IMG/VR virus record: IMGVR_UViG_3300047560_001018 | Coordinates: 1-50,914 of that record | DNA: 50,914 nt | Source of the DNA: a virus | Lineage: Duplodnaviria > Caudoviricetes | Reading direction: 5' to 3' (one strand) | Shown: positions 7,208 through 50,587 of the stretch, piece after piece | Position numbering within the stretch: position 1 is the stretch's first letter | How the letters are laid out: each line of letters starts with the position of its first letter | The notes under the pieces: model-generated | The model's input: only the letters and a program-made list of their open reading frames with translations | Told to the model about the DNA's origin: nothing | Database searches by the model: none | Translations under genes and position numbers: made by a program

Positions 7208-7730
7208 ATACGAGTGGGAGGAAGCGGAGAACCATAATCCGTGGGGCAAGAAGCGCAAGCGAGGGACACACTGCTCTAAGGGCCATGAGTTTACGCCAGA
7301 GAATACATTCATTCGAGCGTATGACAAGGCCCGCGTATGCCGAGAATGCCGCAAGCAGTATGCTCGTGAGAAGTATCAGCGCAACAAGGAGCTAACCGGA
7401 GCGTCACGCCAGAAGAAGATCCGGCAGGTGATCATCGAGTATGAGAACACGCTATCAGCTAATGCTATTGACAAGTGGCGAGAGCTGCAGTATGCTATTA
7501 GTGAGAATGATCCAAAGTGCAAAGGTGCTGAATCTGTCTATGCAGATAGACAATATCCAGTACCAGAGGATAAAGCCGAGGAGATGTGCCATGGCTGCCC
7601 ACTGATCAAGCTGTGCTACGACTATGCAGTAGCGGCCGAAGTCAACCAAGGCATTTGGGGTGGCATTGATTTTACACAGGAGGAGGAATATGACCTTATT
7701 GAAACGCTCTATCAAGGATCTTACAGTTGA
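7200..7730 (+). CDS. whiB: WhiB-family transcription factor with N-terminal Zn-binding domain
   Basis: C-terminal C...CxxC-x5-C plus GIWGG; N-terminal THCSKGHEFTPENT...CREC. Confidence 0.85.
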   Translation: MSKYEWEEAENHNPWGKKRKRGTHCSKGHEFTPENTFIRAYDKARVCRECRKQYAREKYQRNKELTGASRQKKIRQVIIEYENTLSANAIDKWRELQYAISENDPKCKGAESVYADRQYPVPEDKAEEMCHGCPLIKLCYDYAVAAEVNQGIWGGIDFTQEEEYDLIETLYQGSYS

Positions 7731-8391: not shown

Positions 8392-8392
8392 C

Positions 8393-8439
8393 GACACGCC
8401 GTAACATATTTGACTACAATTGGTTAAATGTGGTATAAT
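8393..8439 (+). promoter_or_regulatory. sigma-A-type promoter for the replication operon, with upstream GACAC box
   Basis: TTGACT(8410)-18 nt-TATAAT(8434) with extended TG; GACAC at 8393. Confidence 0.75.
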
Positions 8440-8468
8440 GTATTTACACACAAATAGAGGAGGAATTA

Positions 8469-9200: not shown

Positions 9201-9667
9201 TGACTAACATTTCATTCGACATCACCGAGGAAGCCCTAGCGGCTGCCAATTCATCGAGCTACGAGCCAGTTCCAGCAGGTTCGTATAATGCAACCATCTT
9301 CGACGTCAAGTCGGAGCAGGTAAAGTCGGGTCCAAACGAGGGCAAGCCGCGCTTCAACATCCAGTTCCGTCTCGGTGGTCAGGGCGTTGAGAACCGTCGC
9401 GTGTTCGGTTACGTCTCACTCTACGCTGCTGGTGACTTCTGGAAGACCAAGGCGTTCTTCTCGGCGCTTGGCTACGACATGAAGTCTGGCAAGTTCACCG
9501 TTCCAGAGACAACCGAGTTGCTCGGTAAGCCAATCGGTGTCACTGTCAAGATCGGCACTGATCAGAACGGCCAGCCTCGAAACGAGATCGGCGGCTTCGA
9601 CAAGCCAGACGGCGCAGCAACCCTCGCTGCTGCTTTGGGCGCAAAGCCAGTAGGCGACGTCTTCTAG
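9200..9667 (+). CDS. ssDNA-binding protein (DUF669-like)
   Basis: YEPVPAGSYNATI, L.GKP..VTV, RNEI motifs; acidic/aromatic C-terminus; synteny. Confidence 0.75.
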   Translation: MTNISFDITEEALAAANSSSYEPVPAGSYNATIFDVKSEQVKSGPNEGKPRFNIQFRLGGQGVENRRVFGYVSLYAAGDFWKTKAFFSALGYDMKSGKFTVPETTELLGKPIGVTVKIGTDQNGQPRNEIGGFDKPDGAATLAAALGAKPVGDVF

Positions 9668-9709
9668 TCGAAAACAAAATCCTAGGTCATGATTTAAAAC
9701 TGACCCCAC

Positions 9710-9793
9710 GCCCGGACTGGTGTTAAAGCTTTGGTGTCTTCCTTTCTTTCTCCTTTCTGTTAGCTGATGCAAGTTCGATTCTTGCTCCGGGCA
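9710..9793 (+). ncRNA. tRNA-like RNA with anti-Shine-Dalgarno polypyrimidine tract replacing the anticodon arm
   Basis: 7-bp acceptor stem GCCCGGA/TCCGGGC plus A; perfect T arm GCAAG-TTCGATT-CTTGC; no D stem or anticodon stem-loop; central TCTTCCTTTCTTTCTCCTTTCT. Confidence 0.75.
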
Positions 9794-9865
9794 CAAACTG
9801 CATGCTCTCCGTAAGTGGCCGGCATGTGGGTCCTGTAGTGTAGCCAAGGCAGCTGCAGGATATTT

Positions 9866-9937
9866 TGCCCCTTAGCTCAATGGCAGAGCAGGAAGCTGTT
9901 AACTTCAAGGTTGTTGGTTCGAGTCCAGCAGGGGCAG
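9866..9937 (+). tRNA. tRNA-Asn (GTT)
   Basis: Acceptor TGCCCCT/AGGGGCA, D arm GCTC/GAGC, anticodon loop CTGTTAA, T arm GTTGG-TTCGAGT-CCAGC, discriminator G; CCA not encoded. Confidence 0.92.
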
Positions 9938-9965
9938 CGGGAGAAACATACATAAAGGAGGATAC

Positions 9966-12161: not shown

Positions 12162-12565
12162 TGGATCGTAACGAAGCATTGAAGGTAGCATCAGCACTGA
12201 ATGAAGCTATCTGGCTGAGAGATAACATCCACCTGCTATCCCGCGTGGATGTCGAGGATGGTGTAAAGCGGCTAGCTGTGTTCGGTGTGTTCTCCAACCG
12301 CCAGATACAAGCTATTACAGCGGGCCGGGTAAGCCATCAGTCAGTTGCTCGCATAACAGGCAAGAGCAACAAGTCTGGTGGCAGCCTGAACCCGGGCTCA
12401 CTAGAGCTACTACGTTCTGTGCTATACCGCCGAGCAGAATCAGAGTCAGACTTTGACCTGATCTCACAGGCGGTAGAGCTCGGAACATCACAACACATGG
12501 TTGCAAAGCTAACCGGCGTAAGCCAAAGCACAATTAGCAAGAAACTTAAGGAGGACAATGGCTGA
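12161..12565 (+). CDS. double-HTH DNA-binding protein
   Basis: SNRQIQAITAGRVSHQSVAR and SQHMVAKLTGVSQSTISK. Confidence 0.75.
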   Translation: MDRNEALKVASALNEAIWLRDNIHLLSRVDVEDGVKRLAVFGVFSNRQIQAITAGRVSHQSVARITGKSNKSGGSLNPGSLELLRSVLYRRAESESDFDLISQAVELGTSQHMVAKLTGVSQSTISKKLKEDNG

Positions 12566-12725
12566 TCTAATGTCACGCAAAGCCAAGTTTGAGGAAGTAA
12601 AGCAAGATACAAAGGCTCTGCGATTCCACTGCGATCGCTATGAGTCTGGAGCTACTGACAAGCTGGCAAAGCAGTGCTATCAGTATCTACGAATCCTGAA
12701 GGAGGCCTACGGTGTGGAAGTCTAG
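12558..12725 (+). CDS. hypothetical protein (55 aa, MADLMSRK...YGVEV)
   Basis: Hand-translated, AAGGAGG RBS. Confidence 0.65.
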   Translation: MADLMSRKAKFEEVKQDTKALRFHCDRYESGATDKLAKQCYQYLRILKEAYGVEV

Positions 12726-13158
12726 ACTGCTATGCCTCGATCCGGGTGGCACAACTGGTGTTGCCCTGCTAGAGTATGATGAAGAAACTGCGCCAAGCAT
12801 TATTTGGCACAAGCAGATCGAAGGCGGCCTGCAGGGCTTCCTAAATTTTCACTGGGATCAGTTGCAAGACTGGCTCTATAGTGAGATCATCTGCGAGTCA
12901 TTCACTCTCCGTGAAGGAGTCTACGGTGTAGACCTATCGCCAACGTACATAATCGGGGCACTAGAGGCCTTACACGAGTTGGATGATATTATCTATCAGG
13001 AACCGTCAATGAAGCCTCTATGCGACGATGAGCGCCTTAAGAAGATGGGTCTATATACACCGGGCCGAGGACATGCAATGGATGCTGTTCGTCATGGTGT
13101 TATCTACCTCCGCAACAAAAAGCACAAGCCTACGCTGGAAGCTGGGTGGAAGGAGTAA
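12712..13158 (+). CDS. RuvC-like Holliday junction resolvase
   Basis: CLDPGGTTGVA, ICESF, HAMDAVRH. Confidence 0.85.
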   Translation: MWKSRLLCLDPGGTTGVALLEYDEETAPSIIWHKQIEGGLQGFLNFHWDQLQDWLYSEIICESFTLREGVYGVDLSPTYIIGALEALHELDDIIYQEPSMKPLCDDERLKKMGLYTPGRGHAMDAVRHGVIYLRNKKHKPTLEAGWKE

Positions 13159-13159
13159 T

Positions 13160-13897
13160 ATGAAGATTCTATTCTTGGATCTGGAGACAAGCCCCAACAT
13201 GGCATATGTTTGGGGATTGTTCAACCAGAATGTGTCTATCAACCAAATGGTAAAGTCAACCGAAGTGATCTGCTTCGGAGCAAGGTGGAATGGTGAAAAG
13301 AAAGTTACCTTCAAGTCTGTACACCATGACGGTAAAGAAGCGATGCTTGATTCGCTTTGGGAACTTGTTAATGAGGCTGATGTACTTGTGGGCTGGAATA
13401 GCCAAAGCTTTGACTCTAAGCACATTAAGCGAGAGCTCCTTGAAAATGGCTACACCCCACCGTCACCGTACAAAGAGCTTGATCTCATGCGTGTTGTGCG
13501 TTCACAGTTTAAGTTCCCGTCAAACAAACTCGATTATGTGGCGCAAAAGCTTGGAGTTGGTGCTAAAGTTAAGCACTCGGGTTTTGATCTATGGGTCGCT
13601 TGCATGGCAGGAGACAACAAAGCATGGGCGGAAATGAAGAAGTATCAGATTCAGGACGTAGACCTGCTGATCGACCTTTACGATAAGCTGCTACCTTGGA
13701 TCAAGAACCACCCGAATCGAGCACTACACGACGATGTTCCAGATGGCTGCCCAAACTGTGCGTCAACCAACATGGAGCGACGCGGCTTTAGCTACACTAC
13801 CGTAGCTAAATACCAGCGCTACCAGTGCAAGAACTGTGGGAAGTGGACGCGTGGCGGTACTGCGGTATCTAACGTCGCTCTTCGCTCGGCTGTTTAA
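13160..13897 (+). CDS. DnaQ/RNase H-like 3'-5' exonuclease with C-terminal Zn ribbon
   Basis: LDLET (ExoI), WNSQSFD (ExoII), YQIQDV (ExoIII), CPNC...CKNC; AAGGAG RBS before 13160. Confidence 0.88.
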   Translation: MKILFLDLETSPNMAYVWGLFNQNVSINQMVKSTEVICFGARWNGEKKVTFKSVHHDGKEAMLDSLWELVNEADVLVGWNSQSFDSKHIKRELLENGYTPPSPYKELDLMRVVRSQFKFPSNKLDYVAQKLGVGAKVKHSGFDLWVACMAGDNKAWAEMKKYQIQDVDLLIDLYDKLLPWIKNHPNRALHDDVPDGCPNCASTNMERRGFSYTTVAKYQRYQCKNCGKWTRGGTAVSNVALRSAV

Positions 13898-14198
13898 GCG
13901 CAACTATGTGGAGGTGGGCTTGTTAAAAGAGCTCCCTCCACTTGTTGTTCCAGCGGGATATGAGGAGCATGTGTTGCATATGTACAGCGAAGAGATGGAC
14001 GCGAATGTTATTGTCCATCTAGTGTGCGCCTGTGACGCTCCATCATTCAAGAAGATTGATCGAGATGAATATACCTGTATCCATTGCGATAATCCATGCA
14101 ATGTGGTAGACTGCATCAGATGTAAAGCATTGGATGAATTCGATAACTACGAATTCCCAGCAGATGAGATCGGTGGTGAAGAAGATTCCGACGTATGA
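13851..14198 (+). CDS. Cys-rich hypothetical protein (start uncertain)
   Basis: CAC, CIHC, C...CIRC motifs. Confidence 0.55.
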   Translation: MAVLRYLTSLFARLFKRNYVEVGLLKELPPLVVPAGYEEHVLHMYSEEMDANVIVHLVCACDAPSFKKIDRDEYTCIHCDNPCNVVDCIRCKALDEFDNYEFPADEIGGEEDSDV

Positions 14199-14376
14199 TT
14201 ATGAATGCAAAGATTGCAAAACCAAGCTGTCAATCGTCGCAAACATTAAGGATACAGTTACTGAACCGGCTTGTGAAGATTGTAAAAAAGCAATGACTCG
14301 CAAGTATAACTTTGGCGCAGTGACATTTAAGGGTTCAGGTTTCTACCGGACCGACAGAAATAAGAAGGAGGAGTAA
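14176..14376 (+). CDS. FmdB-family zinc ribbon protein
   Basis: PTYDYECKDC...CEDC...FKGSGFYRTD signature. Confidence 0.85.
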   Translation: MKKIPTYDYECKDCKTKLSIVANIKDTVTEPACEDCKKAMTRKYNFGAVTFKGSGFYRTDRNKKEE

Positions 14377-14561
14377 TGCCGTATTACATTAGCAAGACAC
14401 AAAAAGATTGCAAAGGCCGTTGGGCTGTGATCAGTTCGGATAAGAAGATTCATGGCTGTCACCCAAACAAGCAGGCAGCGATTGCACAGATGGTTGCCAT
14501 CTCGATTGCTCAGAAGATGGATCCGGGTGGCACTTGGCCGGGCGACAAGAAGGCTAAATAA
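14376..14561 (+). CDS. conserved small phage protein (MPY...GCH...AIAQ family)
   Basis: AAGGAGGAG RBS, coupled start. Confidence 0.75.
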   Translation: MPYYISKTQKDCKGRWAVISSDKKIHGCHPNKQAAIAQMVAISIAQKMDPGGTWPGDKKAK

Positions 14562-14944
14562 TGCAGGCCTACGATCTAGTTGACACACTCGTAAAGATCG
14601 ACTACTCAGTCCACAATACTGCACAAATGGTAGCTAACATTAAAGAAGCAAAGGTCATTCATCGGCCGACTGGTAACTTTATTATTATCACTGCTCAGCC
14701 AGATATCCCAGCTGTGCATAGTGCCGTTAGCGCAATGGTTAATGACAATTTTCCAAACTGCCAGCGAGTAGTATTTGTTAGTGGATCAGAAGCTCAAGTT
14801 GCAGAGAAAAAGGCTGGAGTTATTAAGCGTAATAACATCACTGACTTCACCGATAACAATCGTGCGATTCTAGCGAAGATCAAAGAGCTGGTTCCAGATG
14901 TAACCCTATGGGTTATGACTGGTTCTGGCAAGAAGAAATATTAG
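14561..14944 (+). CDS. degenerate HAD-fold-like protein
   Basis: AYDLVDTL resembles HAD motif I; IITAQ, K and FTDNN resemble motifs II-IV. Confidence 0.5.
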   Translation: MQAYDLVDTLVKIDYSVHNTAQMVANIKEAKVIHRPTGNFIIITAQPDIPAVHSAVSAMVNDNFPNCQRVVFVSGSEAQVAEKKAGVIKRNNITDFTDNNRAILAKIKELVPDVTLWVMTGSGKKKY

Positions 14945-14951
14945 GAGGAAC

Positions 14952-15368
14952 ATGGCAAAGATTAATGTGATTGGGAATGTTCCAGCGTATGCACAGATTG
15001 GTGACGCAGGGGCTGATCTAGTCTCAACCGAGGAGCTAACGCTTACTCCGGGACAGACAAAGCTTGTAAAGACTGGAACGTCAATTGCAATTCCAGAGAG
15101 TATGGTCGGTATGGTCTGCTCACGATCAGGGCTATCGCTGAAGAACAGTATCTTTGTGCTTAACGCACCGGGAATCATCGACTCTGGATACCGTGGAGAG
15201 ATCGGCGTTATCTTGCACAATGCAAGCGAAGACTGGTTCCCGATTAAACCGGGCGACCGTATTGCTCAGCTAGTATTTGTACGACACGTTGTTGCGGAAT
15301 TCAACGAGGTTAATTCGCTGGATGCAACTGAGCGTGGAGACAGCGGCTTTGGATCGACGGGAGTATAG
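14952..15368 (+). CDS. dut: trimeric dUTPase
   Basis: AGADL, RSGL, GIIDSGYRGE, RIAQL, RGDSGFGSTG (motifs I-V). Confidence 0.97.
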   Translation: MAKINVIGNVPAYAQIGDAGADLVSTEELTLTPGQTKLVKTGTSIAIPESMVGMVCSRSGLSLKNSIFVLNAPGIIDSGYRGEIGVILHNASEDWFPIKPGDRIAQLVFVRHVVAEFNEVNSLDATERGDSGFGSTGV

Positions 15369-16054
15369 TGAAGTACAGGACCGATGTTACAGTTGATCTT
15401 ATTGATGCTATGGCTTCTGACGATATCATCGTCAAGGCGGCTCGAGTTTCTACTGGTGCTAGTGACAATAAAGATCGTGACGCTGGGCTCATTAACTATC
15501 TAATGCGTGACCGCCACGGCTCACCATTCGAACACGCCGTGTTCACGTTCCGCATCGAAGCACCAATCTTCGTGTTCCGTGAGTTTATGCGTCACCGCAT
15601 GGCCTCGTATAATGAGGAGAGCGGCCGATACAAGGAGCTCGAGCCCGTGTTCTACGTTCCGGGTGGTAAGCGTAATCTGATTCAGATTGGCAAGCCGGGA
15701 GCTTATGAGTTCATTCCGGGCACAGAAGAGCAGCATGACCTAGTTGTTGAGTCAATCATCAGTGCGTCAAAGGAAGCATACAATCGCTACGAGAGTATGC
15801 TGGCAGCTGGCATTGCGCGTGAGGTTGCTCGTGTTGTACTACCAGTCAATATTTATTCATCGATGTATGTAACAATGAACGCACGATCGCTGATGAATTT
15901 CTTGAGTCTTCGCACCAAGGATGATAATAGCGCATTCCCTTCGTTCCCGCAGCGTGAGATCGAGATGGTTGCCGAAAAGATGGAAGCAATCTTCTCTGGC
16001 TGGATGCCAGCTACTCATGCTTCATTTGTAAAGAATCGGAGGGTTGCACCATAA
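15368..16054 (+). CDS. thyX: flavin-dependent thymidylate synthase
   Basis: HGSPFEH, RHRMASYNEESGRY, AREVARVVLP. Confidence 0.97.
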   Translation: MKYRTDVTVDLIDAMASDDIIVKAARVSTGASDNKDRDAGLINYLMRDRHGSPFEHAVFTFRIEAPIFVFREFMRHRMASYNEESGRYKELEPVFYVPGGKRNLIQIGKPGAYEFIPGTEEQHDLVVESIISASKEAYNRYESMLAAGIAREVARVVLPVNIYSSMYVTMNARSLMNFLSLRTKDDNSAFPSFPQREIEMVAEKMEAIFSGWMPATHASFVKNRRVAP

Positions 16055-16263
16055 TGACAGATGCAGTAAATCATCCGCCGCATTACACTAGCGATCCAAG
16101 TGGAGTGGAGTGCATTACCATTGTGCGACATAGAAACTTTGCAATCGGCAATGCGATTAAGTATCTATGGCGAGCTGGACTAAAAGACGGCAACTCTGAT
16201 ATTCAAGATTTGCGTAAAGCAATCTGGTATATTGAAGACGAGATCAAACGACTCGAAAATTAA
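16054..16263 (+). CDS. DUF3310 protein
   Basis: VNHPPHY...GNAIKYLWRAG.K...DLRKAIWY. Confidence 0.9.
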   Translation: MTDAVNHPPHYTSDPSGVECITIVRHRNFAIGNAIKYLWRAGLKDGNSDIQDLRKAIWYIEDEIKRLEN

Positions 16264-29010: not shown

Positions 29011-29477
29011 TAGCTATTCGTTGGGTCCAGTTCAGTATCGACTCTGCACAGAAGTGTGCGCTCCCAAGCATTGCTTGAGTTGATTACGCCAACAACGCTG
29101 AATACAAATTTAGTAAGAACGTCATTATACGGTGACGAAGTGACGATAAGTCGATCGTTCGGGCGAATGTCCGGAACGACTCCGTTACTACCGGCAAGCG
29201 TGTTCTTGCCAAATGGTAGCTCAACGCGAACGTTCTGGAATAACGTTGGGTTATAGGTATCACCAGCATCGCCGGCATTCCCAATCTGCTGCACACGAGC
29301 AGGGCCAGTGTAGCTGATCAGCTTGTCTCCAGTCCATGTGTTCGTGGTTGGATCATACGTCTGGCCAGTGCTATCTGGGTTGTAGACTTCAACCTGAGCA
29401 AGCTGAAGCCCATAACCGACTGATCGGTTATGGGTTAGCCAGCGAGGATCAATTGATCCGCGAGAGTTTAGAGCCAA
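29010..29477 (-). CDS. head-to-tail stopper (DUF6093-like)
   Basis: YDPTT...YTGPARVQ motif; synteny. Confidence 0.7.
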   Translation of the reverse strand: MALNSRGSIDPRWLTHNRSVGYGLQLAQVEVYNPDSTGQTYDPTTNTWTGDKLISYTGPARVQQIGNAGDAGDTYNPTLFQNVRVELPFGKNTLAGSNGVVPDIRPNDRLIVTSSPYNDVLTKFVFSVVGVINSSNAWERTLLCRVDTELDPTNS

Positions 29478-29872
29478 GAGTTATCCCACTTAGTAGTATA
29501 TCCAACAACTAGGAAGCTGTCAGCTGAATCAAGAGCGTCGTCCTGAGCGGCTTCATCCTGCAGCATCTTTGCCTGTGCGCGAAGCTCAGCACCCAGCTTA
29601 GCACCATCAGTAGTGTAGTCCGTAGTGCGGATCACCTTATTGATCAGGGCTTCGCTAGTTGCCAAAACGAGCTTTGCCTGAGCGGCTGCTCGCTTGATGT
29701 TATCCGAGTACATCGAAACGAATGCTTGAATCTGTGCATCGTTGAATAGGTACTCGCCAGTGCCGAGCGGATTGGCCGGATCGACCAACTGCTCAACATC
29801 TGGAATCAGTAGGCGGACCTGACCAATAGCTGTGCTGTAATCGGGTGGATAAATGTCTGGTACGGTAGGCAT
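29468..29872 (-). CDS. head-to-tail adaptor
   Basis: TAIGQVRLLIPD...YLFNDAQI motif. Confidence 0.8.
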   Translation of the reverse strand: MPTVPDIYPPDYSTAIGQVRLLIPDVEQLVDPANPLGTGEYLFNDAQIQAFVSMYSDNIKRAAAQAKLVLATSEALINKVIRTTDYTTDGAKLGAELRAQAKMLQDEAAQDDALDSADSFLVVGYTTKWDNSWL

Positions 29873-29890
29873 GATTCTATTTTACCTGAT

Positions 29891-31403: not shown

Positions 31404-32303
31404 TTAATTTGGATTGATTGTGATTCCGTTAATTGTGGTACTTTGATTATAAGTTGCTGGTGCCACGTTGAGTCCGTACTTTTTAGTCTTCGTTGGTGAG
31501 CTGGCGTCATAGGTTATCTCTGAATCAATGATCGAAGTTCCAGCTGAATCCGAATAGGTACTAAGCTTGATCTGATCGCCCTTGGTCTTTACCCTAAGCG
31601 CACTAGCGGCGGTACTAAGAGTCCATTGACCGATCGATGAAATGGTTCCAGCAACCGACTGAAGGATGCGGATTGAGCGAGGATAGCAGGTCTGACAAGT
31701 CTGCCCCTGCGAATAGCCAGTGCAACCATAAGTAGTGCATCCATAGCCAGTACAACCGTAGCCCGAGCAAGAATAGCCATTGCAGGCATAGGCAATGCAA
31801 CCATAGCCAGCATAAAGAGCACAGCCATAGGCAATACAGTTACCACGCGAGTACTGCGAGCAGCCGTAGCCAAGGCAGCCATAGGCGACACAGATGTAGC
31901 TGGAGCAGGTGTAGGACGTGCAACCGGTTGCAGTACAACCGTAGCCAGTGCAGCCAGTTGACGAGCAGTAGTAGTAGTAACTGCAGTTGCAGCTCACGGT
32001 TGTCTGCTCTAAGCCAGCAGCCCACCAGTTGTTGCTATCCGTTACCCAGAATGAGCCGCCAGTGCCGTTGCCCCCGGTTGCAATCAGCATGTCAGCATCC
32101 TGATAAGGCATTTCCTGAACAGCAATCGGATAGTTCGTATCGGTAGACGTAGCAGTCGTAGGTGTGACATTGAATGAACCGCGCACAGTAGTCCATTGCG
32201 AGCCATCAGTTGCGGTGCCAATGCCAGTGCTAGTGCGGTTGAAAGTATCCACAAAGCGCTTTCGCACCGATGCCATCTGTGCGGATATAGATAAACGGGA
32301 CAT
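31404..32303 (-). CDS. fibre-tip/lectin-fold protein with inserted 20-Cys (CxxYG)n ladder
   Basis: FVDTFNR...G.ATDGSQW...G is a beta-sandwich-type start; 102-aa Cys repeat insert; coupled to the fibre gene. Confidence 0.75.
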   Translation of the reverse strand: MSRLSISAQMASVRKRFVDTFNRTSTGIGTATDGSQWTTVRGSFNVTPTTATSTDTNYPIAVQEMPYQDADMLIATGGNGTGGSFWVTDSNNWWAAGLEQTTVSCNCSYYYYCSSTGCTGYGCTATGCTSYTCSSYICVAYGCLGYGCSQYSRGNCIAYGCALYAGYGCIAYACNGYSCSGYGCTGYGCTTYGCTGYSQGQTCQTCYPRSIRILQSVAGTISSIGQWTLSTAASALRVKTKGDQIKLSTYSDSAGTSIIDSEITYDASSPTKTKKYGLNVAPATYNQSTTINGITINPN

Positions 32304-33484
32304 TAGATTGCCAAGTCTCCAATCAGAACCCATGAGTCAGTTGCGCGCTTAATTAGCGTTGCTGATGACCACTGCGTACGCAGTTTATTTCCCGGAGTCT
32401 TATCAAGGGTAACGCCGCCAGCACCTGAAACAGTTACCTGACCTGCGCCAGTCTGAAGTAGGGTTATGGTTGCGCCAACAGGAAATGCAGTTGTTGCATT
32501 GGTTGGTACAGTTACCGAAATTGCAGCGGCGTTATTTAGTTCAACCATCCTGTTGTGGTCAGTCAATGCGACAGTGTAAGTAGTTCCAGTCTGCGCATTA
32601 ATTGATGTGATAGTTGGGTCAACTGGTGTTTTGTTTTTCCAGAGGCCACTTGAAGCCTCATAAGTAATTACTTGACCATCAACTTTGGTGCCGATAAGCA
32701 CGTCATGTAGCTCATCAACCTCGTAACCATTTTGTACGGTTACAAATATAGAACCCTGAGTTGCATGTGAACGAGTACAGTAACCAATCTGCACAGTGTG
32801 TGCTGGAGCAACTGGCTTAGTCGTAGTCATACCACCAGCAACAGTGCTAGATAGCCATACAGTTGCGCCTTCAGTAAGCGTAGATGTATCGATGTTGCGA
32901 ACTAGACCGAAGGTTGTACACGGTGCTTTTGAACCGCCAGAAGCGTCATCGGTCATAACGCCAAGTGTTTTAGCTGAAGTGGTATCGCTAGTAGCAATGG
33001 AGTAATCGACGAGCATATTTGCGCCGTCAGAGCCGACTACATAGACAACCTTGCCGTTAGTCAAGCCAGACGAGTCAAAACGCTTTACGTTCTGTGCAAG
33101 TTCTTGACCAAGCTGATAAGTAATACCCGGAGCCTGCAGGTCAAGCGTGTTATCAACAGTATTCCAAGACAGTGTTCCAGTAGCAGTAGGTACACCAGTT
33201 GGGGTTGTATCAAAGCCGATCGAATTTACAGCAGATAGATCATTAGTCCACTGCGTTGCAAAATCAGTACTGCTACTCTTTGCAAGTAGTTGTCCTGCAG
33301 TGCCACCGGTTGGAACACCAGTATTCTGGTATGCAAGTGAAACCCATGCAGTAGCGCCATCACCATGCTTTACAAGCTTAGTATCGGTTTCTACACCAGC
33401 CTCACCAACTGCTAGGACTGGATTTGTTGAGGTCCAGTTTGCTGCAGTATCGTGACGCAGCTGAATTCGAGTTTGGACTGGCAT
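32303..33484 (-). CDS. fibre protein with Mtd/hyaluronidase-type N-terminal domain
   Basis: IQLRHDTAANW...NPVLAVGE.GVETDT..K.GDG..W; C-terminal INAQTGTTYT...QWSSATLIK..WVL.GDL. Confidence 0.85.
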   Translation of the reverse strand: MPVQTRIQLRHDTAANWTSTNPVLAVGEAGVETDTKLVKHGDGATAWVSLAYQNTGVPTGGTAGQLLAKSSSTDFATQWTNDLSAVNSIGFDTTPTGVPTATGTLSWNTVDNTLDLQAPGITYQLGQELAQNVKRFDSSGLTNGKVVYVVGSDGANMLVDYSIATSDTTSAKTLGVMTDDASGGSKAPCTTFGLVRNIDTSTLTEGATVWLSSTVAGGMTTTKPVAPAHTVQIGYCTRSHATQGSIFVTVQNGYEVDELHDVLIGTKVDGQVITYEASSGLWKNKTPVDPTITSINAQTGTTYTVALTDHNRMVELNNAAAISVTVPTNATTAFPVGATITLLQTGAGQVTVSGAGGVTLDKTPGNKLRTQWSSATLIKRATDSWVLIGDLAI

Positions 33485-34261: not shown

Positions 34262-34678
34262 CTATACCAGAGTCAAGTCTAGGGTCTCGCCGCCAGACAG
34301 GGTTAGCATCTTATTGTCGAGCCCATTGAGTGGAGTTCCACCCTGATCGGTAAGCTTGAACTTTACGGTCCAGTACCAATTGTTTGGGATGGTATCAGGA
34401 TCATCAGTGGCAATCAGTCTCACACCTCGACCGCCCTGCGGGCCATAGAGGTAGCCTTCTGCGTCGAGAGTGCATTCCACAGTGGCTGGCATGATCGTTA
34501 CCGGAGCTGGACTGGCGGTAGGGTTTTTGACTGCGTTTACAGATGGCACAAAGAAGACGCTGCCTACGGCTGCAATACCGTCTGGCTCATTACCAGCATC
34601 TGCGCTGTCTGCGTAAGCCAAAAGGAAGCGGCCAATCACTGTGCCATAGCCTAGGTTAGTTGGAAGATCAGTAGTCAT
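34262..34678 (-). CDS. paralog of the N-terminal domain of 33484-34254
   Basis: DLP.NL.YGTV.GRFLLAYADS.D and PATVE.TLDA.GYL shared. Confidence 0.8.
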   Translation of the reverse strand: MTTDLPTNLGYGTVIGRFLLAYADSADAGNEPDGIAAVGSVFFVPSVNAVKNPTASPAPVTIMPATVECTLDAEGYLYGPQGGRGVRLIATDDPDTIPNNWYWTVKFKLTDQGGTPLNGLDNKMLTLSGGETLDLTLV

Positions 34679-35556
34679 TATGCCGTACCGCCATTGATGA
34701 TAAGTAGATTATAGTTAAGCGAGATAGTCTGAGTGCCGGAGTTATACTCAACTGGCGATGTTGCATAGGCTACGCCAGATGGTCCCTGTGGACCAGTGGC
34801 TCCAGTGAGGCCCTGTATGCCCTGTATGCCCTGTGAGCCAGTTAAACCGGTGTCACCTTTAGGGCCGGCGGGTCCTTGGATTCCAGCGTCACCTTGAGGT
34901 CCCTGTGGGCCAGTAGCACCATCTGCGCCAACTAGCGATGCTAGCCAGTCTTGCTCAGTTCCATTGAAGCCATTTAGCTGTGCAATCTGATAGGCCGAGA
35001 GACCAGTTAGTCCCTGATATCCTTGAAGGCCTTGATCTCCCTTTGCCCCAGAAGGACCCATAGGCCCCATAGAACCCGTGAGACCAGTGTCACCTTGTGG
35101 ACCAGTAGGACCAGTTTCGCCTTGTATGCCTTGTGGTCCTTGAGGACCAGCAATACCTTGGATTCCTTGCGGTCCAGTATTGCCGTCTGCGCCTGGGAGG
35201 CCCTGCACTCCTTGAGGACCCTGCGGTCCCATAGGTCCAGTTTCGCCCTGTGGACCTTGGATACCTTGCGGACCTTCAGGCCCCTCAAGTCCTTGAGCTC
35301 CTTGAGGTCCGACCTCACCTTGGATACCCTGTATTCCTTGTTCGCCTTGGATACCTTGCGGTCCAACGAGGCCCTCTGGCCCTTGCTCTCCTTGTACACC
35401 CTGCTCGCCCTGTTCGCCCTTTGGTCCCGGAACTCCATCGCTTCCGGGTGCGCCAGATCCACCAGACTTCTTGTCTAGTTTCTTTATTTCATTCTCAACC
35501 TTATCAGCCCAATCTTGCGACTGCTGAGGGAGATTGTTATCTGGGAAAATGATCAT
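34678..35556 (-). CDS. collagen triple-helix fibre protein
   Basis: Long G-X-Y tracts, [22 protein letters not shown] interruption, C-terminal INGGTA. Confidence 0.9.
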
Positions 35557-35578
35557 TGTACGTCTATTCTATCGTGAA

Positions 35579-35626
35579 CAAAAGAAAAGACCCCCTCGGA
35601 GCAAGAAGGCTCAACAAGGGGGTCTT
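35579..35626 (-). terminator. intrinsic terminator (nrdHEF and sRNA)
   Basis: AAGACCCCCT...AGGGGGTCTT followed by TTCTTTT. Confidence 0.85.
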
Positions 35627-35660
35627 GTAACACACACACGCGGAAAGGAGGTATCCGCGT
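35579..35660 (-). ncRNA. putative sRNA mimicking the 16S rRNA 3' tail (anti-SD loop)
   Basis: Extended -10 TGATATAAT (35673-35665), hairpin ACGCGGA-TACCTCCTT-TCCGCGT, GU-repeat linker, then terminator. Confidence 0.65.
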
Positions 35661-35690
35661 ATATATTATATCATGTTATTCAGTTGTGGA

Positions 35691-36653
<963 letters not shown>

Positions 36654-38771
36654 TTACAACATGCAGCTGACGCATTGTTCAACGTCAGTACCATCCAAAG
36701 CCATTTGGCGAATGCGGATATAGTAAATAGTTTTGATGCCCTTCTTCCAAGCGTAGATCTGTGCTCGGTTAACATCTCGGGTCGTTGCAGTGTCCTTGAA
36801 GAACAGGGTCAACGAGAGGCCCTGGTCGACGTGCTGAGTTGCCGCAGCATAGGTGTCGATGATAGCCTCTGGGTCAACCTCGTAGGCATCCTGGAAGTAC
36901 TCCATCGTGTCATCGCTGAGGTACGGAGCCGGGTAGTAAACGCGGCCCAGCTTGCCCTCCTTGCGAGTCTCGATCTTTGAAGCAATCGGGTGAATCGATG
37001 AGGTCGAGTTGTTGATGTAGCTGATCGAACCGGTTGGTGGTACGGCCTGCAGGTTCTGGTTATAGATACCGTGTGCCTTGACTGACTTCTTCAGAAGCTC
37101 CCAGTCATGCACAGTAGGTAGCTCGATACCAAACTTGGCAAACAGATCTTCAACCTTCTTGGTAGCCGGCTTCCATTCCTGCTGAGTGTACTTGTCAAAG
37201 AACTCACCAGTGGCGTACTTCGAGTTATTAAATCCAGCAAAGGTTTCGCCGCGTTCCTTAGCAATCTTATTGCTTGCCTTGATTGCGTGATAAGCCACTG
37301 CATAGAAGTACATGTTCGTAAAATCTACGCCTTCTTCCGATCCGTAGTGGATATGCTCACGAGCTAGGAATCCATGTAGGTTCATCTGCCCTAGACCGAT
37401 CGCGTGAGCCCTCTTATTACCGTCCCTGATAGATGGGACCGACTCGATGCTGCTGAGGTCTGAGACGGCCGTCAGAGCCCGAATTGAGGTATCTACGGTC
37501 TGAGCTAGGTTGCCACCATCCATTACCTTGGCAATGTTGAGCGATCCGAGGTTACAGCTAATGTCAGTTCCAATTTCAGCGTATGACAGATCTTCGTTGT
37601 AAACAGATGGGCTGTTCACCTGCAGGATCTCTGAGCACAGGTTCGACATGTTGATGCGACCGGCGATCGGGTTAGCGTTGTTGACGGTGTCCTCATACAT
37701 GATGTACGGGTAGCCCGACTCAAACTGCAGCTCGGCGATACGCTCGAATAGCACACGAGCCTTGATCTTGGTCTTCTTGATTCGCGAGTCGTCGACCATC
37801 TCCTGGTACTTCTCGGTGACCGAGATGTCGCCGAATGGCACACCGTAAACCTTCTCGACGTCGTATGGCGAGAACAGGTACATGTCTTCGTTGGTGCGAG
37901 CCAGCTCGAGGGTCACGTCTGGCACAACCACACCGATCGAGAGCGACTTGATGCGGATCTTCTCGTCGGCATTCTCGCGCTTGGTGTCGAGGAACTTCAT
38001 GATGTCTGGGTGGTGTGCGTTCAAGTAGACGGCACCGGCACCCTGGCGTGCACCAAGCTGGTTGGCGTAGCTGAAGCTGTCTTCGAGAAGCTTCATAACC
38101 GGGATGATGCCCGAGCTTTGGCCCTCGATCTTCTTGATCGGTGCACCCGACTCGCGGATGTTTGATAGGTTAAGTGCAACACCGCCACCGCGCTTCGACA
38201 GCTGCAGCGACGAGTTGATTGCACGAGAGATCGACTCCATGTTATCCTCGGTACGGAGCAGGAAGCACGAGACAAACTCACCACGCTGCTTCTTGCCTGC
38301 GTTCAGGAACGTCGGAGTTGCTGGCTGGAAGCGACCCGAGATTATCTCGTCGATCAGCTTCTTGGCAACCTTAATGTCACCCTGTGCTAGCACCAAAGCG
38401 TTCATGACAACGCGATCCTCGAAACGCTCTAGGTAGCGAGTGCCATCGAAGGTCTTCAGGGCATACGAGGTATAGAACTTGTATGCGCCCATGAATGCCT
38501 CAAAGCGGTGCTTGTGAGCGTAAGCCTGCTGGAATGCCGCCTTGATATCCTCAAAGCCATACTGGTCCAGCACAGACTGGTCGTAGTAGTCGTGTTCAAC
38601 TAGGTAGTTGAGCTTCTCCTCCAGACTGTGGAAGAAGACGGTGTTCTGGTTAACGTGGTCAAGGAAGTATGATCGTGCTGCTTCCTTATCCTTGTGCAAC
38701 TGCAACTTGCCCTCTGAGTCCCAGAGGTTGATCATTGCGTTTAATTCATGATAGTTATAGTTGTTTTCCAT
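36654..38771 (-). CDS. nrdE: class Ib ribonucleotide reductase alpha subunit
   Basis: [40 protein letters not shown]-terminal CVSC. Confidence 0.98.
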
Positions 38772-38790
38772 TTGGCTCCTTTGTGTGTGG

Positions 38791-39015
38791 TTACTTTACA
38801 AGCTGCATGATCTGATCCATGCGGAATCCGCTCCAGTGCTTGTCGCCAGCAATGACTACTGGTGCAGCCTGGTAGCCAAGCGATCGAACGAGCTCCATTG
38901 CTGCTGCATCCTCCGAAAGATCCACCTCGTTAAAGGCAATGTTCTCTCGCTTGAGCAGACGCTTGGTGCTGTCGCACTGAACGCACGATGGTAGTGAATA
39001 TACGGTTACATCCAT
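38791..39015 (-). CDS. nrdH: glutaredoxin-like NrdH
   Basis: CVQC, APVV, WSGFR; AAAGGAG RBS before ATG 39015. Confidence 0.95.
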
Positions 39016-39049
39016 GATTTTCTCCTTTGCTAAATTTTGACGGAAGAAC

Positions 39050-39060
39050 ATTATAGCACA
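39050..39060 (-). promoter_or_regulatory. extended -10 promoter of nrdHEF
   Basis: TGTGCTATAAT just downstream of the capsid terminator. Confidence 0.7.
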
Positions 39061-39123: not shown

Positions 39124-40224
39124 TTAAGCGCCAGCACCAGTCGAAGCGATGGTACCGGTTGGCATGATCATGCCACCAGTTGCGATGTGACGGATTCGCA
39201 TCTCGAAGTCGTCGTTGTCGAACGAACCTTCGCGGGCAGGAACCTGACCGCCACCGATGTAGAGACCGCCGTTAGCCTTAACGCGGAGCTCTGGCGACTC
39301 GTAACCACGGAGGAAACCAAGAACAACACCTGGGTTGAGGGTGTCCGAAGGAACCGGAATCAGGAACCAGTAGTTGTCCGAGCTAGCGTTGATCTTCTTC
39401 AGCCATGGGTTGACAACAACCTGGATGTTTGCGGCAATTGGGTTGCCCGAAACAGTCGAGGTTACGGTGTCGCCCGAGGTGACCTCAGTGCGAACCTGCT
39501 GGATAGCAAGGATCTTCTTAGCGGTCATTTCAAGACCAGCGTTAACAACCAGTACGAAACGGCTGAACGGAGTGATGGTCTTGCCATTGTAGGTCTGGAC
39601 GTTAGCTGCAACGATAGCTGCCTCAAGCGACTCTAGGGTCAGAGCTGGGTTGCCAGCCAGAAGGTTCTGGTTACCCGACTTGAAGTTGCCAGTGTTAAGG
39701 CCAGTTGCCGAAACGAGCTGCTTGGTAGCCTCTTCGTCTTCCTTGCCAGCAGCCTTGCGAGCAAGCTCAAGAGGCAGACGCTCAAGAATCGAGATGTTGT
39801 TGTCGTTAACGATCGACTCCCACGAGAAGCGGATGCGCGAACCCGACTTCTTAACTGCGAACTCGGCCTCTGAGAACGAGAACCAACCAGCAGTTGGGTA
39901 CTCGTCGTACTCGCCAACGGTAGGCAGCGAGCCCTCGCGGAACTTGTCACCCATGTTGTCAACACCGTCGTCCTCGTAAGCGAGGTTCATGTAGTTGACT
40001 GGGCGGAAGTCGTCAACAACAAGCTTCTGAGCGAACGAACCCCAGACCTTTGGCTGGTCTGCGTAGTTCTGAAGCATGATCTTGTTGATGGTTGGGGCCA
40101 GCTGCACAGGGAGGTCGCTGGTTGCAATGCCTTCGCGGAGCTTGAGCTGGTCGCTCTTGTCACCACGGATTGCGCCTTCGAGGAGCTTAGCTGCCTCGAC
40201 CTGACGTGAAGTAATGTTTTCCAT
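39124..40224 (-). CDS. major capsid protein
   Basis: 366 aa; EGIATSDLP, DFRP, LP.VGE..EY, GSFDNDDFEMRIRH; strong codon bias; synteny. Confidence 0.92.
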   Translation of the reverse strand: MENITSRQVEAAKLLEGAIRGDKSDQLKLREGIATSDLPVQLAPTINKIMLQNYADQPKVWGSFAQKLVVDDFRPVNYMNLAYEDDGVDNMGDKFREGSLPTVGEYDEYPTAGWFSFSEAEFAVKKSGSRIRFSWESIVNDNNISILERLPLELARKAAGKEDEEATKQLVSATGLNTGNFKSGNQNLLAGNPALTLESLEAAIVAANVQTYNGKTITPFSRFVLVVNAGLEMTAKKILAIQQVRTEVTSGDTVTSTVSGNPIAANIQVVVNPWLKKINASSDNYWFLIPVPSDTLNPGVVLGFLRGYESPELRVKANGGLYIGGGQVPAREGSFDNDDFEMRIRHIATGGMIMPTGTIASTGAGA

Positions 40225-46200: not shown

Positions 46201-46297
46201 AGATACACGAAGCGCCTAATCGGATTCTAGGCCTAGGGATTAAATGCCCTAGGTTTAGTGGCTGGATTAGCCGAACAACCTAGAGAAAGAAAGACCT

Positions 46298-46459
46298 ATG
46301 TTCACGAAGCCCGACTTGCGAGACGGCCTTTTTTACTGCGAGACCTGCGGTGAAGTCGAATTTACCGACAACTGCGGCGCATGGAATCGAATCCTTGACC
46401 CAATTTGTCCAACTTGCTTCGATGAATTGACCGAAGCCGAACAGGAAGACCGCTACTAA
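46298..46459 (+). CDS. small Zn-finger protein (CETC...CPTC), first gene of the + arm
   Basis: Hand-translated 53 aa, AGAAAG RBS. Confidence 0.7.
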   Translation: MFTKPDLRDGLFYCETCGEVEFTDNCGAWNRILDPICPTCFDELTEAEQEDRY

Positions 46460-46734
46460 TGAGCAAGCGCAACGCAACAACCGACTTTGTGCCAGTGCTT
46501 GGCATGACCTACGCAAACGAATACTTTGTTGGCGTAATCACCGAAGTTAGCGAGCGTCACACTGCCGCTAACGGCAAAGAACTTATCCGCTTCCAGATTG
46601 AGATTCAGGCAATCACAGACACCGCTCAGGCTATGGCTTTGAGCCTCGAGCCAGGGCAACGTGTCTGGCGTCAAGCAACCCCAACACACGCCGCAAACGG
46701 CCGCTGGAATGTAATGCGCAACGCTGGCCAGTAG
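46459..46734 (+). CDS. hypothetical protein
   Basis: TAATG-coupled ORF. Confidence 0.7.
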   Translation: MSKRNATTDFVPVLGMTYANEYFVGVITEVSERHTAANGKELIRFQIEIQAITDTAQAMALSLEPGQRVWRQATPTHAANGRWNVMRNAGQ

Positions 46735-46801
46735 GCTAGACTTAGACCTAGGCAAGTCTCTAAAAGGCCTATCCACAACCCAACAGAAAGAAAGAAAGAA
46801 C

Positions 46802-47044
46802 ATGACGCAAGCAACCGTGAATCATGCAATTGCCCGCTCGATTGCCGACCTAGTGACGGCCGCGATGACCGAGGCCCGAGACGGCTGGGAATACGAAGAC
46901 ACGCTGGCCCGTGTTGAGATGGCCGGATACCTCGATGGCATGACCCAGATGGCAATCCTTCTAGGCTTCGAAGTAGTAACGAAGGGCTCGGAAGAATTGA
47001 CCCTACTCGGCCGCGGCTACATCGAGAAGCTCGCCAACGCATAA
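46802..47044 (+). CDS. hypothetical protein
   Basis: AGAAAGAAAG leader. Confidence 0.75.
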   Translation: MTQATVNHAIARSIADLVTAAMTEARDGWEYEDTLARVEMAGYLDGMTQMAILLGFEVVTKGSEELTLLGRGYIEKLANA

Positions 47045-47116
47045 TAGCGACAACCAGCACCTACCGCCCTAGGCATGGCCTCTAAACTGCCTACACCTTC
47101 AAACAGAAAGACAATC

Positions 47117-47422
47117 ATGCACCCCGCAATCATCCACGCAATCAAGCGCCGCCAGGATTTTTCACTTGATCTATCGGCCGCCCGTATCGAAGGCCGAAGC
47201 CGTGACCTAATCACGCAAGACGGCCACGCCTACACGACCTACACCGTGTTTTATGACGGCGAAAAGGTTCTCTACTCGGCCGGCTACAGCACCCGCTTTA
47301 ACGATTTCGTGGCTATGCACTACACCGTTACCGACGAAGTGTTCGCCAGCGACTTCATGCTGAACCGATACCAGCGCGTTAACGCCGTGTCGGACGCGCT
47401 GGCCGAAGCTCTCGGCCTGTAG
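47117..47422 (+). CDS. hypothetical protein
   Basis: AGAAAG RBS before ATG 47117. Confidence 0.7.
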   Translation: MHPAIIHAIKRRQDFSLDLSAARIEGRSRDLITQDGHAYTTYTVFYDGEKVLYSAGYSTRFNDFVAMHYTVTDEVFASDFMLNRYQRVNAVSDALAEALGL

Positions 47423-47721
47423 CAAGTCGTGTAGGTTCAACTCTGGTTTTTTGCTAGAGTTGTTCCTAGGCAACTTGCCTAACCCAACTAGAGAAAGAAA
47501 GAAACATGGCAACCTTCACCGTAGTCGAGACCTACGTTTACAAGATTGAAGCCGAGTCGGCCAGCCAGGCCGAGGAATTGTTCGCGACCTACATGGCTGA
47601 GGATGACGACCGCCTACAGCTGATTGACAACCAGCTAGAAGTCGAGACCAACTAGCTCGAATCGTGTAGTTCAGCCCTAGACTTGTGCTAGGGTTGTTCT
47701 AGGCAATTCGCCTAACCCAAC
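47422..47721 (+). repeat. two copies (47422-47488, 47658-47721) of a long imperfect hairpin with covariation
   Basis: Shared CGTG/GGCA and TT/TT internal loops with compensatory stem changes, followed by GCCTAACCCAAC. Confidence 0.8.
47506..47655 (+). CDS. small acidic hypothetical protein (49 aa)
   Basis: Hand-translated MATFTVVETY...EVETN; GAGAAAGAAAG leader. Confidence 0.7.
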   Translation: MATFTVVETYVYKIEAESASQAEELFATYMAEDDDRLQLIDNQLEVETN

Positions 47722-47737
47722 AACAGAAAGAAAGAAT

Positions 47738-48727: not shown

Positions 48728-49158
48728 GTGCAACCGGCCGACCCGTGGGAATCCGCCTTCGGGTTCGGCCAGGCCACCGATCTACGGCCGGCTAGCTTGA
48801 GATAACAATTCGATAACGGCACTTGACAAGCTGCACAAGCTCGGCTAAGCTAGAGCTACAAATAAAAAACGATCTATGGGTTTGGTCCGAAATGCCCGGT
48901 AATGCAACGGTTCAAAATCCACCCTACCCAAAATTGGAATATAACAATTTGGTAACATCGCTTGACACGGCGAGCGCTTTTCGCTAGGCTAGTTTTGATA
49001 CCCGTTTTGGAATATAACAATCCGGTAACAAAGCTTGACAACCGGCCGAGCTTATGCTATGCATCCGGCCGGCCAGGGCAATGTAACAATTTGGTAACGA
49101 AGCTTGACACAAAGCTAGATCCATGCTTAACTATTACTAACCAAACGAAAGGTATCTC

Positions 49159-49299
49159 ATGCACGTTTTCTATCGCGCTACTTTTAGCGATGGCGTTACT
49201 CGCAAAATCGAGCTAAACCAATTCCACCGCGTTGTATTTGCCCTTGAAAAGCAAGGCATTACTTGCACCCATTCGTGGGTTGACATCGAGCTAAACTAG
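49159..49299 (+). CDS. hypothetical protein (46 aa, MHVFYRATFSDG...)
   Basis: Hand-translated, GAAAGGT RBS. Confidence 0.6.
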   Translation: MHVFYRATFSDGVTRKIELNQFHRVVFALEKQGITCTHSWVDIELN

Positions 49300-49314
49300 A
49301 GATAGGCTAGAGAC

Positions 49315-50049
49315 ATGACTACTACACAACTAACCCTTAAGCGTTCTAAGGATCGCAAAGTCGCTAACGCCATCACGCCTAATGGCAAAGCGCCAGCGAT
49401 CGCCAACACCTTTGGATTGCCTAGCGGCAAAGCTTTCTCATGCCCGGGCGCGACAACCGTTTGCGAGAAGATCTGCTACGCGGGCAACCTTGAGAGGATC
49501 TACAAAGGTGTGAAGGATGTACTTTTGCACAATTGGCAAGCTCTCGAGAATGCCACCGAATCAGAAGCCACCGAGCTACTAGCCGCGATGATCGATGAAT
49601 TCCGCAAGGATTGCGACAAGCGCAACGCCGAGAAGCTATTCCGAATCCATTGGGATGGCGACTTTTTTAATGAGACTTACACGATCGCGTGGCGTAATGT
49701 AATCGAAGCTAACGCCGATATCCAATTTTGGGCATACACCCGAAGCGACTTCGCCGTTCCGCTATTGATCAATATTGACAACTTGAGCTTGTATTTCTCG
49801 ACCGACATGGCTAACCGCGTGTTGGGTATCAAGCTAAAGAAGCAATACGGCGTGAAGCTAGCTTACCTAGCCAACACTTTCGCCGAAGGTAAGTCCGACT
49901 TTGAGACCATTCAGGATAAGTCGCCGATTCCATGCCCTGAAAACAACCGCAAGCTAGCTTTGATCACCGACAAGGGATCGGCTTGCGTCACTTGCTCGCA
50001 GTGCGTGTTCAACCGCAACGACATTCTGTTTAGCGCAACCAAGAAATAA
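49315..50049 (+). CDS. GP88-family protein (radical-SAM-like Cys cluster), leaderless
   Basis: FGLP.G..SCPGAT..C...CYA, FRIHWDGDF, FWAYTR, CP...C..C..C; TTGACA-17-TAGGCT-6-ATG. Confidence 0.8.
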   Translation: MTTTQLTLKRSKDRKVANAITPNGKAPAIANTFGLPSGKAFSCPGATTVCEKICYAGNLERIYKGVKDVLLHNWQALENATESEATELLAAMIDEFRKDCDKRNAEKLFRIHWDGDFFNETYTIAWRNVIEANADIQFWAYTRSDFAVPLLINIDNLSLYFSTDMANRVLGIKLKKQYGVKLAYLANTFAEGKSDFETIQDKSPIPCPENNRKLALITDKGSACVTCSQCVFNRNDILFSATKK

Positions 50050-50587
50050 CAAGTTGATAACGGGGGTTGACAAGCTGGTTGATCCCCGTTAAACTTGTTT
50101 CATAATTTAAAAAGCGATAACAAAGTTTGGCCCGATAAGCTTAGTAAACACACGGGAGATAACCGGCCCTACCCTGTGCAACAACATAACGATTCGATAA
50201 CAACACTTGACAACCGACAACCTATCCACTAAGCTAGATCTGATACCCAATTCCAACATAACGAAACGATAACGGGCATTCTACAGGCTCGCATCCACTT
50301 TGTCAAGCCCGAAACGATAACAATCAGATCACAATCAACGAAGCCACCAGCGGCCGCTAGCGGGCTTTTCAGCTATTGGTTGGTATGATTCCCCATTCTA
50401 ATGGCTTCGTGGCTTCTACGGGCGTTTTACGGCGTTTTTGGATCTTTTGCCCTAGCTCTATAGATCATGGCACAGGCTTGCCGTTATCAATCCGTTATAA
50501 AAAAGTTTGGAAAAACACTTGACAAGCGTTTCGGCTGTGCTAGATTAGAGATATCAGGAAGCAAACAACACGAAAGGAATTCCCGAT

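Follow-up and report, generated by a model that had tools for sequence, protein, structure and literature searches.

A conserved, structured RNA unit with an anti-Shine-Dalgarno loop precedes the tail-fibre gene in phages from freshwater metagenomes

In Firmicutes, the small RNAs (sRNAs) RsaE/RoxS and SprD, the latter carried on a mobile element, and the hairpins of RNAIII use C/U-rich loops to pair with Shine-Dalgarno (SD) regions and block initiation. Phages P1 and P7 encode the c4 antisense RNA, a small RNA that masks a ribosome-binding site (RBS). In phage T4, RegB and RegA shut off earlier mRNAs by way of the GGAG SD sequence, and later mRNAs with other sites escape. Phage lambda makes the 6S RNA, a short terminated transcript, at PR'-tR' just upstream of its late structural genes, which lack their own promoter and rely on antitermination by Q; a promoter-proximal stop overcome by antitermination is known both from this region and from HK022 put. 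The actinobacterial sRNA 6C (B11 in mycobacteria), a short sRNA of high-GC Gram-positives, is described as binding mRNAs independently of a chaperone, with C-rich hairpin loops that pair with purine-rich single-stranded mRNA sites (PMC6486639).

Here we describe a phage element that is similar to 6C in its C-rich hairpin loop. Unlike 6C, which is host-encoded and has several loops with C runs, it has one CCUCCUU loop and a different terminator, and it gave no match to the 6C model in Rfam either at the gathering score or at E values up to 10. Whereas the C-rich-seed sRNAs of Firmicutes have specific targets and extended pairing, the phage element conserves only a generic anti-SD core. The c4 RNA acts on one neighbouring operon via two defined complementary boxes, and the phage element has no Rfam match that would place it with c4. 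RegB and RegA are proteins (a nuclease and a repressor), whereas the agent proposed here is an RNA, with a function that we infer. The titles and abstract openings that we searched for anti-SD RNAs encoded by phages, mimics of 16S rRNA and small RNAs of actinophages contained no description of such an element.

The window, by which we mean the whole stretch of DNA analysed, is a complete virus record of 50,914 bp, and matching DNA came from freshwater metagenomes. Its minus strand carries the structural genes from ~45.2 to 16.3 kb (large terminase, portal, a match to a head-maturation-protease family and capsid, then tail-fibre, tail and lysis genes), and the portal protein is nearest to the portals of Clavibacter, Microbacterium and Arthrobacter phages (33-46% identity). 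The element and the features around it are listed in Table 1.

Table 1. Positions of the element, its parts and the neighbouring features in the window
Feature	Position	Strand	Remarks
Replication and nucleotide-metabolism block	103-16263	+	SNF2 helicase, PD-(D/E)XK nuclease, AAA_24, DUF669, DUF3987 primase-like protein, exonuclease, dUTPase, ThyX
Capsid gene	39124-40224	-	structural block
Capsid terminator	39104-39079	-	terminator scan
nrdH-nrdE-nrdF cassette	35691-39058	-	between capsid terminator and sRNA module in the window phage
Promoter of the nrd cassette, TGCTATAAT	39058-39050	-	promoter-like box
nrdE leader, GTAACCACACACAAAGGAG	38794-38776	-	19-bp complementarity to loop and linker
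nrdF stop	35691	-	precedes sRNA module
P1, extended -10 box TGATATAAT	35673-35665	-	consensus match; no -35-like hexamer
5' hairpin, ACGCGGA-UACCUCCUU-UCCGCGU	35660-35638	-	7-bp stem, extendable to 9 bp
Hairpin loop, UACCUCCUU, 9 nt	35653-35645	-	contains anti-SD core CCUCCUU
UG-rich linker, GUGUGUGUUACAA	35637-35625	-	single-stranded; sequence and fold
Intrinsic terminator, GACCCCC...GGGGGUC and U tract	35626-35577	-	fold and terminator scan
P2, -10 box TAGAAT	35571-35566	-	9 nt upstream of tail-fibre ATG (35556)
Collagen-like tail-fibre gene	34678-35556	-	292 aa, MIIFPD...; Pfam Collagen 2.2e-36; PHROG tail-fibre families

The promoter-like box, the hairpin and the terminator lie at the coordinates that a preliminary description of this DNA had given them, and its proposal of a self-contained unit is borne out, as a putative promoter, a hairpin and a terminator without a conserved open reading frame (ORF), by the anatomy, the fold and checks of the reading frames. 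The predicted 5' end of the sRNA is at ~35660-35658. Two hairpins make up the predicted fold of the 85-nt RNA (-39.7 kcal/mol; z = -7.5; 0/200 shuffles fold equally well), the minimum free energy (MFE) structure is also the centroid structure, giving a single well-defined fold, and the loop stays open at a cost of just 0.05 kcal/mol. A terminator scan returned a terminator-like site at 35610-35590; the upper stem of the terminator is YGUUGAG(C)...(G)CUCCRG with a UU bulge, followed by the U tract. The tail-fibre mRNA starting at P2 is predicted to be leaderless or near-leaderless. By itself, ACCTCCTT is about as frequent in the window as chance predicts (2 occurrences versus 1.18 expected); it is the unit as a whole that stands out from chance, by its conservation and its covariation.

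Extended -10 boxes of similar type occur in both the replication and the structural block and were seen at 8431, 27853, 35673 and 39058. A second candidate leaderless late gene is 29468-29872, with GGTAAAAT 6 nt before its ATG (29872-29890, minus strand). At 48780-50100 (plus strand), TTGACA stands just upstream of the starts at 48823, 48962, 49315 and 50095, a -35-type promoter style unlike that of the extended -10 boxes. Three metatranscriptomes contained 6-13% of the sampled words, as contigs of relatives, over the capsid gene and parts of nrd; none of these contigs, which come from relatives only and cannot show ends or levels, spans 35578-35662, and one of them, 162 nt in length, stops at 35539, 17 nt into the tail-fibre gene.

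A capsid-based search of IMG/VR yielded 73 related loci (68-99% capsid identity), giving 74 sources together with the window. The N-terminus of the tail-fibre protein (first 45 residues) was found in 56/74 sources, leaving out as spurious a 57th match (L073, E = 7.9); in the other 18 loci, L073 included, at most 3.3 kb of DNA lies past the capsid gene. All 56 sources with the tail-fibre start have the module directly upstream of it, in the order -10 box, CUCCU-loop hairpin, linker of variable length, terminator, second -10 box and tail-fibre ATG, predicted to be leaderless (54 modules were parsed automatically, and the identical pair L020/L021, with a bulged stem, was read by eye). Nearly all relatives have a P1-like -10 hexamer 4-8 nt upstream of the hairpin. 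Among 39 unique variants, TAGAAT or TATAAT lies mostly 4-9 nt upstream of the ATG (one was scored at 0 nt), and the terminator-to-P2 distance is variable, at roughly 9-35 nt. Roughly half of the variants have a linker that reads GUGUGUG or GUGUUGUGU, and the others almost lack one.

The tail-fibre gene is the constant downstream neighbour of the module, whereas the upstream neighbour is the capsid terminator in some phages and nrdH, nrdF, a different reductase or a small basic ORF in others. This variation shows that the module goes with the tail-fibre gene and that insertions recur at a hot spot ahead of P1. Across L003-L075, the interval between the capsid terminator and P1 holds nothing, nrdH alone, nrdHEF, a reductase (MFSFKLSDDF...), a lysine-rich small ORF or other genes, and in relatives without the cassette the module is found 144-220 nt past the capsid gene. 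The linkage to nrdF that the preliminary description had suggested as the place to look for homologues does not hold, given that the module travels with the tail-fibre gene and is also present in phages without an adjacent nrd cassette.

A covariance model (R1), built from nine well-aligned sequences, gave exactly one forward match in each of the 56 sources; in the window the single match is 35580-35659 on the minus strand (38.2 bits, E = 5.5e-7), and the model detected no second copy there. With Rfam 15, the whole window matched only tRNA at the gathering score, the region 35500-35750 gave seven chance-level matches at E values up to 10 (the best, PyrR, with 20.6 bits against a gathering score of 54), and nine related or look-alike loci had no match. 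A degenerate pattern scan of IMG/VR returned 62 stretches, including ~14 further contigs with the tail-fibre-linked module. The same kind of scan of bacterial genomes returned 38 stretches: one had a good model score (36 bits) and lies on a contig of a metagenome-assembled genome (MAG) labelled Rhodoluna, two were weak (E = 0.007 and 0.04) and 35 had no match at E values up to 0.1. The good match (L233, 3966-4043, minus strand) is a family member with the loop CACCUCCUU, on a 9.5-kb phage-like contig binned with an uncultured Rhodoluna sp. MAG, and this binning is a weak pointer to Rhodoluna as the host genus. Among GenBank phages no record had the element, and only the coding part of nrdF was matched (70-75% identity). 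An exact 15-mer scan of viral contigs was set aside: only one of its 63 stretches, from a near-identical phage, was relevant, and the others resemble ordinary RBSs on the opposite strand. One locus departs from the leaderless layout, with ~40 nt between a P2-like box and the tail-fibre-like ATG, so that its mRNA would have a leader (L189, 3820-3960, plus strand). Other units running from promoter to terminator, with stretches rich in CU (CUCCUUCAGGGGAAUCCUCCCUCCCCUC, for example), were seen on seven unrelated-looking viral contigs (L159, L161, L167, L168, L171, L184 and L214); they have the same CCCYGUUGAG...CUCCRGGG terminator stem, with no tail-fibre start after it and no Rfam match, and there may be a wider group of phage small RNAs with this common stem.

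The secondary structure is conserved under selection. MAFFT alignments A1 and A2 misplaced the 3' arm of the first hairpin, and covariation was therefore assessed on a model-based alignment of 43 distinct rows, which is fitted to the model structure and so favours structure. On this alignment, 95.9% of cells pair, as compared to 71.4% in shuffles, both partners vary in 16/20 pairs, and sliding the partners by 1-3 columns lowers the covariation score from 0.656 to no more than 0.112; 0/500 shuffles reached the observed pairing and covariation values. In the first hairpin, all six model stem pairs change on both sides, with four to six pair types each. In the terminator, both partners vary in 8/9 pairs of helix 3, and the pairs of the upper stem show little or no variation; the lower stem covaries and the upper stem (YGUUGAG...CUCCRG with the UU bulge) is conserved in sequence. 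Independently of the fitted alignment, a plain listing contains some twenty different stem sequences, all of which are still complementary. We conclude that the element is very probably a real, conserved, structured RNA unit.

The preliminary description had also stated that the loop copies the 3' tail of 16S rRNA. In the window the hairpin has ACCUCCUUUC, 10 nt, in common with the 16S tail GGAUCACCUCCUUUCU, and among 31 distinct hairpins 27 have CCUCCUU (at least 7 nt of the 16S tail) and four have only CUCCU. Identity of 10-11 nt is found in 5/31 hairpins and is confined to few lineages; the flanks of the loop core are variable and lie partly within the covarying stem. Because CCUCCUU or CUCCU is kept while extended identity is rare, the anti-SD core is the conserved feature: single-stranded display of CCUCCUU holds for the family, extended identity to GGAUCACCUCCUUUCU does not, and the near-complete tail copy in the window is lineage-specific. 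GGAUCACCUCCUUUCU itself was read at the SSU rRNA 3' end in two of 26 genomes (L254 and L255) from the genus of the Rhodoluna-labelled MAG; the other 24 had no match, which in an incomplete genome does not show absence, and neither did the Rhodoluna-labelled MAG itself.

The loop thus offers an accessible, conserved seed (CUCCU in 39/39 unique variants) complementary to GGAG(G)-type RBSs, and these are unevenly distributed. GGAG is found at -20 to -4 in 21/35 genes of the replication block and in 2/32 structural genes of the window (Fisher p = 2.4e-6), as well as in 2/3 nrd genes and 0/16 right-arm small genes. The structural genes either use sites that are AAGGA-like or weaker or have their ATG immediately after a -10 box. 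On crude ORF calls for five complete relatives (G001-G005), the share is 33-52% in replication runs and 7-22% in structural runs (12/23 and 4/10 versus 9/41 in G001, 15/36 versus 4/30 and 1/9 in G002, 15/46 versus 6/29 in G003, 15/35 versus 2/21 and 2/20 in G004, and 12/24 versus 5/29 and 1/14 in G005). Because these relatives are mutually related, they show one pattern repeatedly rather than providing five independent tests, and something else, for instance translational coupling in structural operons, could account for the partition. A third RBS class, purine leaders of the type AGAAAGAAAGAA without GGAG, is seen in four small genes of the right arm, at 46298, 46802, 47506 and 47738, in the region 46285-47726 on the plus strand.

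Predicted targets were ranked by duplex energy plus opening energies; a ranking by RNAcofold was dropped because this program cannot place intermolecular pairs within a hairpin loop. In the accessibility-aware ranking, the top interactions are loop-SD pairings, mostly with genes of the replication block, and in 11-17 of the top 20 predictions the gene and the sRNA lie on opposite strands. Orthologues of 9200-9667 rank in the top eight in 5/6 genomes, and those of 9966-12161 and of 7660-8391 in three each. The predictions track SD strength and therefore say little more than the complementarity does; they point to no specific conserved target, and by eye we saw no co-variation of the loop flanks with the flanks of recurrent predicted targets. 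In keeping with the GGAG-type targets that had been suggested at the outset, the best complementarity is to the GGAG(G) sites of the plus-strand replication block.

Our preferred reading, a tentative one with a little less than even confidence, is that the element encodes an sRNA that acts in trans, masking strong SD sites and sparing leaderless or weak-SD late mRNAs. Transcription would start from P1 at the foot of the 5' hairpin and produce an independent small RNA of ~75-85 nt, with a hairpin loop displaying CCUCCUU, the core of the 16S anti-SD sequence. The intrinsic terminator would end the sRNA just ahead of P2, from which a leaderless tail-fibre mRNA would be made. The exposed loop would pair in trans with GGAG(G)-type SD sequences and block binding of the 30S subunit, the targets being phage mRNAs for replication and nucleotide metabolism and presumably host mRNAs too. 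Because structural mRNAs have weak, non-GGAG sites or no leader, they would escape masking. We infer from sequence that P1 is active, that the RNA accumulates and that it may affect translation. A loop with this specificity would also match strong SD sites of the phage's own nrdH and nrdE and of some structural genes (for example 32303-33484), and a trans-acting sRNA would need very high abundance to matter.

A more far-reaching version, which we regard as speculative and rather unlikely, is a whole RNA-based programme. A highly expressed anti-SD sRNA would mask GGAG(G) on host and replication-stage mRNAs, handing ribosomes to the leaderless or weak non-GGAG late mRNAs, and a second CU-rich RNA (9737-9758, plus strand) may do likewise to the right-arm AGAAAGAAAG leaders, each stage silencing the previous one. 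The region in question is a 22-nt CU run, TCTTCCTTTCTTTCTCCTTTCT, in a 298-nt gap that precedes tRNA-Asn and the primase-like gene, with the T-arm-like GCAAGTTCGATTCTTGC after it. Within the run lies an exact complement of AGAAAGAAAG, the motif in the leaders of the right-arm small genes, and the other 'anti-SD RNA' of the preliminary description is probably this run. G004 has a similar CU run and T-arm-like stem just upstream of the primase orthologue, and no GAAAGAAAG leaders were found in G001-G005.

The constant place of the module beside the tail-fibre promoter is equally expected of an element acting in cis, and the best surviving alternative, though an unlikely one, is that the unit is a leader, attenuator or insulator of the tail operon. 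In that case, the late promoter would be P1, with hairpin and terminator forming a stop that is lifted by antitermination, or the unit would simply shield P2, with the short RNA as a by-product. The module is directly upstream of the tail-fibre gene in 56/56 sources whatever precedes it; however, the gap between terminator and ATG is very short, so that constant linkage is expected anyway. The sequence conservation of the upper stem of the terminator suggests recognition by a factor, and a promoter and a terminator within ~80 nt ahead of late genes is the layout of the lambdoid late leader. Unlike the late genes of lambda, which lack a promoter of their own, the tail-fibre gene has a conserved TAGAAT or TATAAT directly before its ATG, as judged by sequence. 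Because this -10 box mostly lies 4-9 nt before the ATG, the tail-fibre gene would have its own promoter, and a read-through RNA would carry an internal AUG without an SD. Against action in cis stand also the variable distance between terminator and P2 and the single two-hairpin fold, which offers no competing antiterminator, and the invariant CUCCU loop is left unexplained.

The loop could also serve as a decoy of the 16S 3' tail that binds or absorbs a protein recognizing the anti-SD sequence, whether a host toxin endoribonuclease in phage defence or a ribosome maturation or initiation factor, a proposal that we consider improbable. Its core is that of the 16S anti-SD sequence, the identity reaches 10-11 nt in a minority of hairpins, and genomes of the candidate host genus yielded the 16S tail. 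Some actinobacterial toxins remove the anti-SD, and late genes that do not rely on a strong SD would tolerate its loss. The actinobacterial toxin RelE1 reportedly cuts the anti-SD region. MazF-mt11 is described as cutting C/ACCU just before the anti-SD (PMC12274833); the CACCU context is present in only two loop types, whereas CUCCU alone is invariant. In addition, no such toxin is known for the host, and a cleavable decoy would be consumed unless in large excess.

Still less probable, in our assessment, is the model of the preliminary description, in which the RNA specifically regulates nrdE and other CACAC-GGAG leaders through joint pairing of loop and UG-rich linker. The complementarity to the nrdE leader is present as claimed, with 4-nt and 1-nt bulges on the sRNA side and a hybrid energy of -23.9 kcal/mol; yet the duplex uses the 3' arm of the hairpin, the opening of which costs 12.75 kcal/mol, leaving a net -7.5 to -8.2 kcal/mol and only rank 4 to 8 among phage leaders, and the pairing is lineage-specific. 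Leaders with CACAC and GGAG do precede 103, 1003 and 8469, and CACAC occurs in the leaders of five window genes (7 occurrences versus 2.35 expected), a weak enrichment that is not conserved: complete relatives that keep the UG-rich linker have such leaders in no gene (G003) or one gene (G004), and the idea was rejected as a general explanation. The near absence of a linker in about half of the variants and the presence of the module in phages without an adjacent nrd cassette also argue against it. Linker pairing may matter in the lineage of the window; it is not the conserved function.

It is barely credible that the feature is coding or fortuitous, that is, a small opposite-strand ORF with an AAGGAGG RBS or a chance hairpin beside the nrdF terminator: a mechanical 67-aa plus-strand ORF (35534-35737) spans the element and 24/44 unique modules have some stop-free antisense frame, but this ORF is not conserved, 19/44 modules have no start codon 4-13 nt past any opposite-strand GGAG and the other peptides are short and unrelated, all antisense frames are interrupted by stops in 20/44, module lengths differ by amounts that are not multiples of three, and the covariation keeps base pairs rather than codons.

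Conserved, structurally supported phage small RNAs are rare, and the phages of freshwater Actinobacteria are almost unstudied. Returning to the masking of SD sites in trans, a generic anti-SD loop, an adjoining leaderless late operon and the concentration of GGAG in the replication block together form a concrete, testable hypothesis, namely that a phage sRNA may redirect translation during infection. Even with another mechanism, the element would be a new RNA motif, one that has over 40 sequence variants, covaries clearly and has a terminator stem with unexplained conservation of sequence. If the hypothesis is true, the phage would reprogramme the mRNA choice of the ribosome by means of RNA, where T4 uses the proteins RegA and RegB.
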